In this document: positions 47,479-60,421 of the stretch, one piece after another
Layout: every line of letters starts with the position of its first letter
Numbering within the stretch: the first letter of the stretch is position 1
IMG/VR virus record: IMGVR_UViG_3300012931_000017
Span: 33,415 to 97,414 of that record
Length of the DNA: 64,000 nucleotides
Strand: one strand, 5' to 3'
Origin: a virus
Position numbers and translations under genes: made by a program
The notes under the pieces: generated by a model
What the model was told of the DNA's origin: nothing
The model's input: the letters and a program-made list of their open reading frames with translations, nothing else
Database searches by the model: none

Positions 47479-48768
47479 ATGAACAATAATCTAAAGAATG
47501 GTTTATTTATGAACAATAATGAAGCATGTGTAGTTACTCTTAAAAATATATCTTCTATTGAAGGTGCTGACAAAATTAAACAAGCTGATGTATATCTTAA
47601 AGATATAAAACTTACTCAGGTTGTTGTTGGTGTAGAAACTAAAGAAGATACTAAAGTAGTTTATTTTGATTCTAATATTTGTATTAATGAATGTTTGACT
47701 CAAGATTTTCCAGATCTTGCAAAATATTTGGGTAAACATAATCGAGTTAAAACTATTAAACTTAAAGGCATTATTTCTAATGGTCTTTGTGTAGATTTAG
47801 ATAAATTTTACAAATACTTTAAAAATGAAAAAGAAGCTAAGTCCACTTTGGTTGAAGGTTATTCTTTCTCAAAAATTAGAGAACAAGATATTTGCAAAAA
47901 ATATATTGTTATGGTTAATGAACCTTCAAAATCTAAAAAGACTAAAGGTAAAGGTAAAATTAGTTCGCGAATGATTCCGGGTATATTTGCCTTTCATTGT
48001 GATACAAATCAGCTTCTTAGAAATATTCATAAGATAAATCCTGATGATATAATCTCAATTTCGGCAAAATTTCATGGCTCCAGCTCGATTGTATCTAATT
48101 GTTTGGTAAAAAAGAAACTTAACTTTAAAGAAAGAATTGCTAAGAAACTTGGAGTTAAAGTAGTTGAAACTGAATATGATTATATTTACGCTTCAAGAAG
48201 AGTTATTAAAAATAAGGAATTCCCAAATTCTAAGTCTTTTTATTCCGAAGATATTTGGGCTAAGTCTGGTAGAGAAAACTTTGAAGGTAAACTTAATAAA
48301 GGTGAAACAGTTTATTATGAAATTGTAGGTTTTCTAGAAAATGGAAAATATATTCAGAAACAATATGATTATGGTTGTACTTCACCAAATTATAAGATTG
48401 TAGTTTATAGAATTACATCAACTAATATTGATGGTGTAGTAACTGAATATAGTTGGTCCTCTATGAAAGAAAGATGTAAAGAACTTAATGTTCCAATGGT
48501 AAAAGAATATTACTACGGGAAAGCTAAAGATCTTTATCCTAATATTTCAATAGAAAATCATTGGCAAATTAATTTTGTTGAACAACTCAAAAAAGATTTT
48601 CTTGAGAAGAAGAGTGCTGATTGTATTAATGACGTTCCTGATGAAGGTATTGTTATTAGAAGAGAGTCTATTTCTATTGATGTTTATAAGTTGAAATCTG
48701 AACTTTTTATTCTAAGAGAATCTAAGTTGAAAGATGATGAAGTTGAAGATATTGAAGATTTGAACTAA
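47479..48768 (+). CDS. RNA ligase (Rnl2-like nucleotidyltransferase)
   Basis: Motif I 'SAKFHGSS' (T4 Rnl2 'KIHGTN'), 'VYYEIVGF', motif IV-like 'EGIVIRRE'. Confidence 0.55.
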   Translation: MNNNLKNGLFMNNNEACVVTLKNISSIEGADKIKQADVYLKDIKLTQVVVGVETKEDTKVVYFDSNICINECLTQDFPDLAKYLGKHNRVKTIKLKGIISNGLCVDLDKFYKYFKNEKEAKSTLVEGYSFSKIREQDICKKYIVMVNEPSKSKKTKGKGKISSRMIPGIFAFHCDTNQLLRNIHKINPDDIISISAKFHGSSSIVSNCLVKKKLNFKERIAKKLGVKVVETEYDYIYASRRVIKNKEFPNSKSFYSEDIWAKSGRENFEGKLNKGETVYYEIVGFLENGKYIQKQYDYGCTSPNYKIVVYRITSTNIDGVVTEYSWSSMKERCKELNVPMVKEYYYGKAKDLYPNISIENHWQINFVEQLKKDFLEKKSADCINDVPDEGIVIRRESISIDVYKLKSELFILRESKLKDDEVEDIEDLN

Positions 48769-48774
48769 TTATAA

Positions 48775-48800
48775 ATAGAATTATAAAATATAATTGTCAA
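48775..48800 (-). promoter_or_regulatory. reverse-oriented copy of the promoter element just downstream of the RNA-ligase stop
   Basis: The reverse complement reads CTTGACAATTATATTTTATAATTC. Confidence 0.35.
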
Positions 48801-48866
48801 GAATTATGTTTTTAAACCGTTAGATCTTAATGACTAACACAAAACTCACAAAAGGAGGAACCCAAT

Positions 48867-49289
48867 ATGGGCGAAAGATTTTTTTATGCACAAGATGTTT
48901 TTGATATTTTAACACGTAATATTCATGATGGTTTTTATTCATCTATTTTTAAGTCGGATTATAAACCAGATTATCCTTATGATCTTTATAAACAAGATAA
49001 TGACATTTATATTGAACTTCCTGTAATTGGAATCAATAAAGATGATATTAAAATTAAGGTTGAAAAGGATGTTTTGAGGATTTCCTGTAATAAAGATAAT
49101 GAAAAGATCACTAATCGTGATTATTATGTAAAAAGGATAACTAGAAAAAACTTTGATATTCCTTTTAAAATTGATGGCGATTTTGATATTAATTCAATAG
49201 ATGCAACTGTAGATAAAGGTTTACTAAGAATTAAAATACCTGCTTCTATTGAGTCTAAATCAAATTATTTCGATGTAAAAATAAAATAG
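48867..49289 (+). CDS. small heat-shock protein (Hsp20/alpha-crystallin)
   Basis: 'LPVIGINKDDIKIKVEKDVLRISC...GLLRIKIP' ACD pattern; RBS AAAGGAGG. Confidence 0.65.
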   Translation: MGERFFYAQDVFDILTRNIHDGFYSSIFKSDYKPDYPYDLYKQDNDIYIELPVIGINKDDIKIKVEKDVLRISCNKDNEKITNRDYYVKRITRKNFDIPFKIDGDFDINSIDATVDKGLLRIKIPASIESKSNYFDVKIK

Positions 49290-49308
49290 AATTTTTTAAT
49301 AATTTTTC

Positions 49309-49345
49309 TTGACAATTATATTTCAAAATATTATTTTATTATAAA
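49309..49345 (+). promoter_or_regulatory. variant promoter (early-like box plus TATAAATA late-like box) upstream of the tRNA cluster
   Basis: TTGACAATTATATTTCAAAATATTATTTTATTATAAATA. Confidence 0.5.
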
Positions 49346-49443
49346 TACAAAATCTTTGCTCGTGTCGAATAATGATTAGTTCAACTGATTTTCAGTCAGT
49401 TAATTGGAGTTTGATTCTCCACACGAGTATTTTTAATTTATTT

Positions 49444-49527
49444 GGGTGATTCGCATAGTGGTCAAGTGCTCCTGACTGTAGATCAGGCGGCGAAAGCCTT
49501 TCGGTGGTTCAAATCCATCATCACCCA
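49444..49527 (+). tRNA. tRNA-Tyr (GTA), class II with long variable arm
   Basis: Hand-folded. Acceptor GGGTGAT/ATCACCC, D-stem GCAT/GTGC, anticodon stem CCTGA/TCAGG with loop CTGTAGA, 15-nt variable arm, T-arm GGTGG-TTCAAAT-CCATC. Confidence 0.8.
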
Positions 49528-49539
49528 TTTTTATTTTAA

Positions 49540-58510: not shown

Positions 58511-58554
58511 TAAACCGAAGTAATTAATGACTTCTGTTTGTACTTTGTGTAAAA

Positions 58555-58588
58555 AGAGGGAGAAAATTAATTATCCCTCTTTTATTTT
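58555..58588 (+). terminator. rho-independent terminator after the MVP-like gene
   Basis: AGAGGGA-(12-nt loop)-TCCCTCT followed by TTTATTTT. Confidence 0.7.
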
Positions 58589-58660
58589 ACTTGCTTTTAT
58601 TGTTTCTATTAATTATATTAATATTGTGATTTGTTTATTAACAGAAAGGATTTTTATTAT

Positions 58661-58991
58661 GTGGAATATTAATATTGAGGGTTATGATATTAGAGAATTC
58701 TCTAAGGAAACCTATGCCGAAATCAAAAAAATAATAAGTTCTAATGAATCATTCGATAACGAAGAGCTTTATGATTTTGAAATTTCCGTACAAACCGATG
58801 AACATAAACCAAAAAGAAGCTGGGGTTGGTCCAACATTGATTCCAAAATAATTTTATTCAGTGATGATCCTAATCAATTTAACCTAATTGATCGAATAAA
58901 ATTTAAAGAAACCTATAAAGAAATTCAAAAAAATATTCATAAAATTCTATCAATAACTAAATCAGTGTGTGACACTTTGAATAAAGAATAA
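58661..58991 (+). CDS. hypothetical protein (110 aa); start moved to the Met downstream of the terminator
   Basis: The track ORF 58527-58991 contains the terminator hairpin in its first 60 nt. The internal 'MWNINIEGYD' is the plausible start. Confidence 0.3.
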
Positions 58992-59008
58992 TTTCAAGGA
59001 TTTTATAA

Positions 59009-59488
59009 ATGCAAGTATTCATTTTTGATCGTGATATAACTAATAACGCTCAGTTCTACTGTGATAAACACGTAGTAAAGATACCGTTGGAGATCACACA
59101 AATTTTGTGTACTTCTGTGAGGGTTTTGAACGGTTATAATGAAGATGATATTTATAAAATTACTCACAAAAATCATCCTTGGTGTAAATTTGGATATTCT
59201 TCTGAAGAAGCCTTTATTTACCTATATAATTTGGGTTATTCCTTATTCAAAGAATATACCTATCGGTATAATAGAACTCATAAATCAGAAGTTATATTAA
59301 CTCGATGTTTAGAAATTATCGAATATAAAAATAGAGATGTTGATTTTGATAGTTTAACTTTTCCTTTGTGCATTCCCGAACAATATAAAACTAAAGATGC
59401 TATTGAATCTTATAGAAATTATTGTCTTGGTGAAAAACATCATATTGGAAAATGGACTAATAGACCTAAACCATATTGGTGGAAGTAA
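59009..59488 (+). CDS. pyrimidine-dimer DNA glycosylase (T4 DenV / endonuclease V-like)
   Basis: 'DKHVVKIPLEITQIL' parallels DenV 'DQHLMAEYRELPRVF'; C-terminal 'RPKPYWWK' parallels 'RPTWYKYYGK'; similar length. Confidence 0.45.
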   Translation: MQVFIFDRDITNNAQFYCDKHVVKIPLEITQILCTSVRVLNGYNEDDIYKITHKNHPWCKFGYSSEEAFIYLYNLGYSLFKEYTYRYNRTHKSEVILTRCLEIIEYKNRDVDFDSLTFPLCIPEQYKTKDAIESYRNYCLGEKHHIGKWTNRPKPYWWK

Positions 59489-59700
59489 TGGATAAAAAAT
59501 GTAAAATGCTTTTAGAATGTTCGCCTTATGACTATAAAAATTATTTTTATGATTTATGTTTATCTTCAACTAATAATCATAATGAACACAATAAAGATCG
59601 TAAGTTTCAAGAAATAGAAGAACAGTCTAAAGAAGTAAGTAAGAATAATAAAAAACATTCTTATAAAGAAGTGTGTAAAAGAAATAAATTTTTTAGTTAG
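59476..59700 (+). CDS. hypothetical small protein (74 aa)
   Basis: ORF track. Confidence 0.2.
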   Translation: MVEVMDKKCKMLLECSPYDYKNYFYDLCLSSTNNHNEHNKDRKFQEIEEQSKEVSKNNKKHSYKEVCKRNKFFS

Positions 59701-59707
59701 GAATTAT

Positions 59708-60421
59708 ATGAACGATTCATTAGGTGATAGAATGAAATGTTATGAGTCTGTAAGTAGAGATTATTTAATGAAAAGAACTCCTGTTATAATAAGGTTAGAT
59801 GGTAAGAGTTTTCACACTTTTACCAAAGGATTTGATAAACCATTTGATGAAAGATTAATGAAAATAATGATTGAAACCACTAAGTTTTTGGTTAGATCTA
59901 TAGATGGTTGTTATTTTGGTTATACTCAATCTGATGAAATTAGTTTATTATTGGTTGATTACAAAACTTTACAAACTGAAGCTTGGTTAAATAATAATAT
60001 TCAAAAAATAGTTTCTATTTCATCATCATTATCAACTGCATTTTTTAATCAGCAATTTAAAATTAAATTTTCTGGAACTTTGAAAAGTGATAATTTAGCA
60101 TTCTTTGATTCAAGAGCTTTTAACCTACCAAAGGAAGAAGTGGTTAATTATTTTATTTGGAGACAGCAAGATGCTTCGAGAAATAGTGTACAAATGATAG
60201 GTCGTAGTTATTTTTCTCATAAAGAATTAATTAATAAATCGTGCGATAATATTCAAGAAATGTTATTTAGTAAGTTTGGTGTTAATTATAATAATATTGA
60301 AACTTATAAGAAACGTGGAACTTGTATTTTTTATAAAGACATTTATAGAATTGATAAAGAAATTCCTATTTTTACTCAAGATAGAAACTATATTCAACAC
60401 TTTGTTGATATTGGAGAATAA
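59708..60421 (+). CDS. Thg1-like protein (tRNA-His guanylyltransferase family, 3'-5' nucleotidyltransferase)
   Basis: 'VIIRLDGKSFHTFTKGFDKPFDERL' parallels the Thg1 '(V/I)VRLDG(R/K)xFHxFxxxFxKPxD' core; size 237 aa. Confidence 0.6.
   Translation: MNDSLGDRMKCYESVSRDYLMKRTPVIIRLDGKSFHTFTKGFDKPFDERLMKIMIETTKFLVRSIDGCYFGYTQSDEISLLLVDYKTLQTEAWLNNNIQKIVSISSSLSTAFFNQQFKIKFSGTLKSDNLAFFDSRAFNLPKEEVVNYFIWRQQDASRNSVQMIGRSYFSHKELINKSCDNIQEMLFSKFGVNYNNIETYKKRGTCIFYKDIYRIDKEIPIFTQDRNYIQHFVDIGE

Follow-up and report, generated by a model that had tools for sequence, protein, structure and literature searches.

Does a phage that carries genes for an RNA ligase and a Thg1-like 3'-5' polymerase in one accessory region possess the means to rebuild damaged tRNA? 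The question is raised by a 64,000-nucleotide stretch of the IMG/VR virus record IMGVR_UViG_3300012931_000017 (positions 33,415 to 97,414), the whole of which is referred to hereafter as the window. The original prediction for this DNA placed an Rnl2-like RNA ligase at 47479-48768 and a Thg1-like protein (TLP) at 59708-60421 in a repair toolkit directed against host tRNA nucleases, possibly together with a HAD phosphatase or a nucleotidyltransferase. What was observed, for the ligase, the TLP and a third protein, a nucleotidyltransferase encoded between them, is the family of each, the integrity of their catalytic residues, the arrangement of their domains and repeated linkage of the genes in other phages. 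We conclude, with a probability that we put at about 0.55, that the accessory region encodes three enzymes jointly able to restore damaged structured RNA, most plausibly tRNA.

An open reading frame (ORF) for the Thg1-like protein was found at exactly 59708-60421 on the + strand. It encodes 237 amino acids, residues 27-47 of which read IIRLDGKSFHTFTKGFDKPFD. The protein passed the Thg1 models, matching Pfam Thg1 (PF04446) at 116 bits (E 1.4e-33; cut-off 29.2), the C-terminal domain model Thg1C (PF14413) at 30.2 bits (cut-off 26.3) and phrog_4717, 'tRNA-His guanylyltransferase', at E 2.7e-91. Judged by these scores, which are far beyond chance, it is beyond doubt a Thg1-family enzyme, and the gene is annotated as that of a putative template-dependent 3'-5' RNA polymerase.

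The best solved relative was the Bacillus thuringiensis TLP (BtTLP; PDB 4kgk), aligned over residues 3-235 with an E-value of 3.7e-63, whereas eukaryotic Thg1 structures matched at only 1e-13 to 1e-17. With the window TLP as query, BtTLP scored 216 bits and eukaryotic Thg1 at most 66. The conserved residues D31, D76 and E77 aligned with the palm-domain metal-binding carboxylates in 4kgk and 3wbz, and the likewise conserved K44 occupied the position of the ATP-activation lysine in the PDB alignments. In human Thg1 the metal-binding carboxylates are D29, D76 and E77 (PMC6471195, from which the residue roles are taken). Where Candida Thg1 has WRQVDCHINNL, the window protein has WRQQDASRNSV; HINNLYN, a eukaryote-specific motif that reads the anticodon of tRNA-His (PMC6471195), is replaced by DASRNSV, as it is in BtTLP. 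The similarity to BtTLP and the missing HINNLYN motif together indicate a full-length TLP of bacterial type. The window protein thus resembles BtTLP and other bacterial and archaeal TLPs in the extent of the match, in its catalytic carboxylates and lysine and in the lack of HINNLYN; unlike BtTLP, it is phage-encoded. Bacterial and archaeal TLPs prefer templated repair of 5'-truncated tRNAs of any identity to addition of G-1 (PMC6471195), and by analogy templated 3'-5' repair of 5'-truncated tRNA may be expected of the window TLP.

The ligase ORF also lay exactly where it had been placed, at 47479-48768 on the + strand (429 amino acids), with the KxHG motif I as 'SAKFHGSS' at residues 195-202. 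Across 40 homologues K197, H199 and G200 of motif I, E281 and G284 of motif III, E389 of motif IV and K404 and K406 of motif V were invariant. The protein matched phrog_968, 'RNA ligase', over its full length (E 1.1e-40). Its match to Pfam RNA_ligase (PF09414) was under the cut-off (23.4 bits against 27) and that to the PHA02142 OB domain (PF21189) was weak (18.6 bits), the latter domain being present in homologues; many of its 1014 homologues bear both PF09414 and the PHA02142 OB domain in precomputed annotation. The scores again lie far beyond chance, and the matches assign the ligase to the phage-rich family phrog_968/PHA02142, for which no biochemical study was found.

Predicted structure allowed the ligase type to be narrowed. 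A confident AlphaFold2 (AF2) model, with a pLDDT of 87.4, has an OB domain at about residues 16-140 and a nucleotidyltransferase domain, which includes K197, at about 165-420. In Foldseek searches it matched the Naegleria ligase NgrRnl (PDB 5cot) over its full length (E 4.6e-16), followed by T4 Rnl2, the RNA-editing ligase REL1, archaeal Rnl3, Trl1 and Rnl1. T4 Rnl2 (E 4.4e-7, 273 columns, TM 0.32-0.41) and REL1 (E about 1e-6) aligned with the nucleotidyltransferase domain only. DNA ligases were all but absent among the matches, and the protein thus groups with RNA ligases and not with DNA ligases or capping enzymes. The N-terminal domain alone resembled the tRNA-binding OB folds of Trbp111, EMAPII, MetRS-C and PheRS-beta; Raymond and Shuman proposed a tRNA-binding-type OB fold for the N-domain of DraRnl likewise (PMC1807946). 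The window protein ends 23 residues past motif V and has no C-terminal domain.

By this architecture, as modelled, the 429-amino-acid protein is an Rnl5-like ligase, sharing with DraRnl and NgrRnl an N-terminal OB domain, a nucleotidyltransferase domain and the lack of a C-terminal domain, and sharing with DraRnl the motif I KxHG (K165, H167 and G168 in DraRnl). It is not a DraRnl equivalog, scoring 20.6 bits against TIGR02306, whose cut-off is 151, and it differs from the Rnl5 enzymes in being about 90 residues longer and about 17% identical, with inserts at 147-160 and 247-253. A profile search of PDB sequences returned the NgrRnl N-domain only, at a marginal E-value of 0.0035, and a match to RIO2 kinase in the same kind of search was dismissed as spurious; because the sequence-profile matches to solved structures are marginal, the classification rests on predicted structure. 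The earlier assignment therefore stands as far as an RNA ligase is concerned, and falls in its Rnl2 type, since the N-terminal OB domain is present, the C-terminal helical domain of Rnl2 is absent and PF09414 stays below its cut-off. A DraRnl homologue had already been noted in the T4-like Aeromonas phage 44RR2.8t (PMC1807946).

The nucleotidyltransferase suspected of belonging to the repair set proved to be a predicted RlaP-family enzyme. Encoded at 53356-54315 on the + strand (319 amino acids), it matched phrog_388 at E 3.1e-37 and fell short of Pfam RlaP (PF10127; 19.2 bits, cut-off 23), a cut-off passed by 14 of the 18 homologues from an iterative profile search, the best at 6.7e-22. The Pol-beta signature GS...DxD (G30, S31, S41, D42, D44) is invariant in the family, as are K189, H193 and R196. 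The protein is 61% identical to the RlaP sited 1.3 kb upstream of the TLP gene in the locus of the closest TLP relative, L002. Searches of PDB by sequence and by profile gave no solved relative beyond a marginal match to an MNT antitoxin. Taken together, these matches indicate an RlaP-family protein, predicted to extend RNA on the 3' side. Enzymes of this family attach one or two nucleoside monophosphates to RNA 3'-OH ends, and RlaP is needed in vitro to restore aminoacylation of over-trimmed, re-ligated tRNA (PMC12776372). The RNA-repair theme is strengthened by this identification.

In order to see whether the three families are associated elsewhere, we assembled 80 IMG/VR TLP loci with flanks of 10 kb on either side, representing 58 lineages at 70% TLP identity; flanking ORFs were clustered and the clusters annotated, RlaP and other families being found by iterative searches. 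The flanks contained a mix of nucleotide-metabolism and RNA-repair genes. RlaP lay within 10 kb of TLP in 18 of the 80 loci (13 of the 58 lineages), and at 1.5 kb or less in five lineages; in L009, L039 and L052 it is the immediate neighbour of TLP, with both genes on one strand. PF09414 ligases were present in 6/80 loci, Pnk-type kinases in 11/80, metallophosphoesterases in 13/80 and Acb1/2H phosphoesterases in 11/80. In L002, whose TLP is 56% identical to that of the window, a 211-amino-acid RNA ligase, RlaP, two small ORFs and TLP fall within 3.7 kb, and L003 has RlaP, NAD synthase, TLP and patatin genes. In XacN1, an unrelated jumbo phage, 4.2 kb separates TLP from a same-strand ligase gene of the family found in the window. 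Around a relative of the window's major vault protein (MVP) homologue, in L092, the order is Pnkp (T4-type), Nudix, RlaP, Gad1, patatin, MVP; in L093-L096 an NAD+ salvage/NADAR cluster surrounds MVP, and RlaP is 7-8 kb off. We conclude that the ligase, RlaP and TLP families keep company in phages.

Nor is a Thg1-like enzyme unusual in a phage, as the original prediction had it: TLP genes were found in 164 INPHARED records and, in one pattern scan, in 225 IMG/VR stretches, and the family has its own PHROG, 4717. The INPHARED records are of Bacillus, Caulobacter, Fusobacterium, Xanthomonas, Aeromonas, Vibrio, Mycobacterium and 'Prevotella' phages. The ligase family was present in 379 INPHARED records and RlaP in 358; 15 records with 'Prevotella sp.' as host appear in each of the three lists, as does XacN1, and Xoo-sp13, CM1 and RAS14 appear in those of TLP and RlaP.

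Within the window the three genes lie in a long run of + strand accessory genes that begins at about 45 kb. The sequence TTGACA-N17-TATWTT matched exactly at 10 sites in the window, against 0.17 expected by chance. The matches share, or mostly share, the extended sequence TTGACAATTATAT, mostly as TTGACAATTATATTTTAAAAT.TTAT.TT. Seven of the ten are on the + strand between 46.9 and 62.1 kb (46898-62119); the others, at 7957-9442 on the - strand, are in a divergent region near 8-9.4 kb. The + strand sites precede the ligase run, the tRNA cluster, an HNH gene, the run from NMNAT-NAMPT to RlaP and patatin, the run from MVP to TLP, and a GroES gene. They are probably host-sigma-70-type promoters of one temporal class, and if the sites are promoters the ligase, RlaP and TLP genes are probably three units under common regulation. 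No further site of that class occurs before the TLP gene, so MVP and TLP may share a transcript.

These observations suggest a pathway in which all three enzymes would act on clean RNA ends, with a 3'-OH and a 5'-phosphate. RlaP would add one or two untemplated nucleotides to a shortened 3'-OH end; the TLP would activate the 5'-phosphate with ATP or GTP and refill missing 5' nucleotides with the opposite strand of the stem as template; and the Rnl5-like ligase would finally seal the nick inside the duplex stem. Sealing of this kind is established for DraRnl and NgrRnl, which close 3'-OH/5'-PO4 nicks in a duplex when the strand that ends in the 3'-OH is RNA (PMC1807946, PMC4408790). Since the genes share one strand and one promoter class and are accompanied by phage tRNAs and an NAD+ salvage pair, they may form a counter-defence block that keeps translation running under host attack on tRNA. 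We infer tRNA as the substrate, the cooperation of the three enzymes, the timing of their expression and the counter-defence purpose.

The kind of damage that such a kit could mend depends on end-healing enzymes, which were sought in the window and the 10 kb upstream of it (74 kb in all). No Pnkp, HAD, 2H or metallophosphoesterase gene was found in this range. Pfam and NCBIfam models detected no kinase or phosphatase among about 60 ORFs of the window, a DxDxT motif scan of 82 ORFs returned nothing, and tblastn searches of the window and the upstream 10 kb with the Pnkp of L092, the Pnk of L042 and the PTH2, Gad1 and DUF2828 proteins of relatives were likewise negative; the HAD phosphatase of the original prediction was thus not found in the window. 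Given that no kinase or phosphatase was found, and provided that the rest of the genome encodes none, the kit would match the 3'-OH and 5'-phosphate ends left by metal-dependent nucleases, and not the breaks of PrrC-type anticodon nucleases. Damage by nucleases followed by trimming would also fit; breaks with 2',3'-cyclic-phosphate and 5'-OH ends, which in T4 are mended by Pnkp and Rnl1, would fit less well.

That no healing enzyme was found is one of several points that weigh against joint repair of tRNA. The three genes are not contiguous but spaced 4.6 and 5.4 kb apart, with Hsp20, tRNA, HNH endonuclease, NMNAT/NAMPT, patatin and MVP genes in the gaps, and they are in three different predicted transcription units. 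Most TLP loci have no partner: at least one of RlaP, ligase and Pnk was within 10 kb in only 26/80, and ligases of the window's family were near TLP in only 1/80 (L064), plus XacN1. These counts are raw, with no background rate for random 20-kb phage segments. Genes for tRNAs were within 10 kb in only 10/80 loci, and a general tie of TLP to tRNA genes was rejected on this account. We know of no phage-defence nuclease that truncates tRNA 5' ends and of no target nuclease. For bacterial TLPs and for Rnl5 ligases, moreover, the substrates used in living cells have yet to be established (PMC6471195; PMC5397189). The toolkit that had been proposed is therefore partly supported: other phages, in which TLP, RlaP, ligase and Pnkp-type genes recur close together, speak for it, and the window itself, where the genes are dispersed and no end-healing enzyme was found, speaks against it.

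The separate transcription units would suit independent accessory genes, with the TLP acting in tRNA maturation or quality control, on phage tRNA transcripts with wrongly processed 5' ends or by supplying G-1 to a phage tRNA-His that has C73, and not in repair of host damage. The phage has five or more tRNA genes, between some of which there are only 12 nt, and such spacing makes imprecise 5' processing conceivable, and TLPs add G-1 opposite C73 in vitro (PMC6471195). ARAGORN and Rfam, however, found no tRNA-His gene in the window, and in the sole tRNA-His seen in a related contig (L087) G-1 is genome-encoded and paired with C73; a role of the TLP in adding G-1 to a phage tRNA-His was rejected on these grounds. 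Moreover, TLP has RlaP, ligase or Pnk genes nearby more often than tRNA genes (26/80 against 10/80 loci), and its direct adjacency to RlaP in several lineages points to a shared pathway. We regard this explanation as rather unlikely. It is a less probable proposal that the ligase, and possibly the TLP, act on nucleic acids other than tRNA, at RNA-containing nicks of replication or recombination or in the repair of phage mRNA or rRNA. What Rnl5 ligases mend are nicks in RNA:DNA or RNA:RNA duplexes, as opposed to broken anticodon loops, and Deinococcus becomes radiation-sensitive when DraRnl is knocked out (PMC5397189); such a function would agree with the part that DraRnl has been proposed to play in recovery from genome damage. 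In vitro, TLPs can use external templates and substrates other than tRNA (PMC6471195), and genes for Pol B, UvsX, gp41, gp32 and RNase H lie 20-30 kb upstream in the window. Yet the ligase has an N-terminal OB domain similar to those that bind tRNA, its neighbours in relatives are PTH2, a suppressor tRNA and tRNA clusters and include no replication genes, and RlaP activity has been shown on RNA only (PMC12776372).

The promoter-like sites also bear on the MVP homologue, the last strong site ahead of the TLP gene being that of the MVP gene. RlaP, patatin, MVP and TLP might accordingly form a vault-like, NAD+/ADP-ribose-linked module around MVP, of which RNA-end repair would be one facet. The order RlaP, patatin, 113-amino-acid ORF, MVP recurs in L092; in 250-kb phages MVP stands between nicotinamidase/NadE/NMNAT/Nudix and NADAR/NAPRTase genes with RlaP 7-8 kb away; and in L091 the ligase homologue has a Band_7 gene 3.4 kb away. 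Against such a module, MVP was near TLP in 0/80 viral loci, L002 and L003 retain RlaP, TLP and patatin but lack MVP, Rfam gave no match in the window to vault RNA or Y RNA, and a shared accessory region is weak evidence of physical association; we consider it improbable. More speculative, and very improbable, is a scheme in which TLP, RlaP and the Rnl5-like ligase constitute a Pnkp-independent gap-filling pathway organised by the MVP homologue into a vault-like ribonucleoprotein. Were it true, the origin of the eukaryotic vault, with its MVP, RNA-binding subunit, NAD+-using subunit and small RNA, would be linked to phage-host conflicts over tRNA and NAD+. Joint restoration of tRNA by the three enzymes remains the reading that we prefer.

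The immediate neighbours of the ligase are conserved. A promoter-like site, TTGACA-N17-TATTTT, at 47007-47035 (+ strand; an exact match) precedes a run of a Zn-ribbon gene, a 51-amino-acid ORF, the ligase and Hsp20. The Zn-ribbon protein (47065-47331, +; 88 amino acids; Pfam Zn_ribbon_8, 37.7 bits) accompanies the ligase in synteny: in L087, upstream of a ligase 65% identical to the window's, the corresponding position holds a protein 58% identical to it. The small heat-shock protein Hsp20 (48867-49289, +; Pfam HSP20, 3.5e-13) is context and not a repair enzyme; the order ligase, Hsp20 is kept in L087 and L088. In L087, a biogas-fermenter contig, the PTH2 gene adjoins the ligase gene, and the space between them (3258-3329) is taken up by a tRNA of suppressor type whose anticodon is CTA. 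This tRNA hints at stop-codon recoding in L087; the window ORFs read normally with code 11. A DUF2828/DUF7788 protein of L087, considered as a TROVE relative, had no TROVE or Ro60 match.

Downstream of Hsp20, a promoter-like site at 49309-49337 (+) precedes a cluster of + strand tRNA genes called by both ARAGORN and the Rfam tRNA model: tRNA-Glu(UUC) at 49357-49430, tRNA-Tyr(GUA) at 49443-49528 and tRNA-Met/CAU at 49612-49685. Two more, tRNA-Gln(UUG) at 62516-62590 and tRNA-Gly(UCC) at 63231-63304, are on the + strand farther downstream. Between tRNA-Tyr and tRNA-Met a 64-nt tRNA-like element (49540-49603, +) matched the Rfam tRNA model at 35.7 bits (cut-off 29) with no ARAGORN call. It has acceptor, D and T arms, and its anticodon stem-loop is cut to about 8 nt. 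As a conserved cofactor RNA it was rejected, with a folding z-score of -0.59 and hence no folding signal; its T-arm/acceptor sequence had no exact match in IMG/VR, and a presumed counterpart in L087 reached 19.8 bits, the common 15-mer being the tRNA T-loop consensus only. We take the element for a pseudogene or else for a small RNA resembling a tRNA.

An exact 35-nt direct repeat (49700-49734 and 50322-50356), with a promoter-like site inside, flanks the HNH ORF at 49772-50368. The repeat suggests that the HNH gene came in as a mobile element and, on insertion, duplicated the NMNAT-NAMPT promoter. The NAD+ salvage pair itself (50382-52624, +) comprises an NMNAT-like adenylyltransferase and a nicotinamide phosphoribosyltransferase (NAMPT; NAMPT_N 5e-37, NAPRTase 2e-48) and is in one predicted unit with RlaP and patatin; relatives carry NadE, nicotinamidase, Nudix or NADAR genes in place of, or besides, NMNAT and NAMPT. 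The patatin-like phospholipase (54388-55550, +; Pfam Patatin 3.2e-12) is encoded by two ORFs, of 84 and 303 amino acids, in different frames, whereas the patatin of L092 is a single fused protein of 380 amino acids; the split might result from a frameshift, from fission of the gene or from an error in sequencing. Its match to NF041079, the model of the CBASS phospholipase (a cGAMP-activated lipase), was below the cut-off at 4e-26. In relatives patatin is conserved beside RlaP, MVP and TLP and is always followed by the zinc-finger-like ORF of 113 amino acids found here at 55559-55900. The MVP homologue (845 amino acids) is encoded at 55973-58510 on the + strand (Pfam MVP_shoulder 7.8e-28), behind its promoter-like site at 55897-55925 (+). 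Within INPHARED it has homologues in only three huge uncultured phages; more than 6000 metagenomic or bacterial homologues exist, many of them named major vault protein. Phage MVPs were reported in a 2023 preprint without discussion of gene context (10.1101/2023.11.10.566534).

The source phage is T4-like, as judged from its genes for Portal_T4, gp21 protease, gp32 and the like; the window makes up the final 64 kb of its contig in a metagenome assembly (ENA ERZ27227667 k141_4222033, 97,815 bp). Portal_T4, prohead protease and T4 neck genes lie upstream of the window, and the window, which is AT-rich (G+C about 26%), contains gp46/47-like genes, UvsW, a family-B DNA polymerase, UvsX, a gp41-type helicase, gp32, RNase H, the clamp loader, an intein-split NrdD, a 7-deazaguanine gene set, ThyX and dUTPase. 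A megablast search of INPHARED with the window from 44 to 64 kb revealed no near-identical phage. The anaerobic ribonucleotide reductase NrdD (27775-31512, +) is encoded by two ORFs with intein-splicing motifs at the junction and a 394-amino-acid ORF between the halves. The 7-deazaguanine set (32954-39903, +) comprises a radical-SAM QueE-like protein, GTP cyclohydrolase I, a TGT/DpdA-like transglycosylase, a methyltransferase and a QueC-like protein, and suggests a modified guanine in the phage DNA. GroES/Cpn10 is phage-encoded at 62174-62503 (+).

Among known systems the closest in purpose is that of T4, whose Pnkp and Rnl1 act on PrrC-cleaved tRNA-Lys: both would be phage answers to host breakage of tRNA in a T4-like background, and T4 has an RlaP homologue too, NrdC.11. 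Unlike T4, the phage studied here has no Pnkp within the 74 kb searched and no Rnl1-type ligase, and its enzymes would require 3'-OH/5'-phosphate ends and could replace lost nucleotides, which directs them to trimmed ends and stem nicks. The Pseudomonas RtcB-RlaP-RtcA operons (PMC12776372) similarly pair RlaP with an RNA ligase in the repair of over-trimmed tRNA; they are tight operons in which RtcB joins 3'-phosphate ends, whereas the window has an ATP-dependent, 5'-phosphate ligase and dispersed genes. RNA repair in jumbo phages with ligase, RlaP and Thg1 was described by Iyer, Anantharaman, Krishnan, Burroughs and Aravind (2021; PMC7824862), who group ATP-grasp RNA ligases, RlaP, CCA-adding enzyme, Thg1, PTH2, tRNAs and NAD+ salvage as counter-defence. 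The present phage differs from theirs in being T4-like and of at least 98 kb, its jumbo status not being shown. The concept of a repair kit is thus already published, and our interpretation is reasonable, unproven and not new. Neither close TLP-RlaP linkage nor the Rnl5-type architecture of the ligase family is mentioned in the passages of that paper that were consulted. The present analysis contributes the assignment of the ligase family to the Rnl5 type, the repeated close linkage of TLP and RlaP, and the finding of no Pnkp at the syntenic position in this phage.

For the window itself the result is mainly careful annotation, its gene set matching a repertoire that had been described in large phages before. 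More generally, phages in which TLP lies beside RlaP, RNA ligases and Pnkp offer a concrete setting, in hosts with tRNA-cleaving defences, for finding the substrates of TLP and Rnl5 enzymes. If the three enzymes cooperate, they would give phages a repair route for tRNAs that have lost nucleotides, beyond re-ligation of the T4 style, and their cooperation would predict host nucleases that trim tRNA stems.

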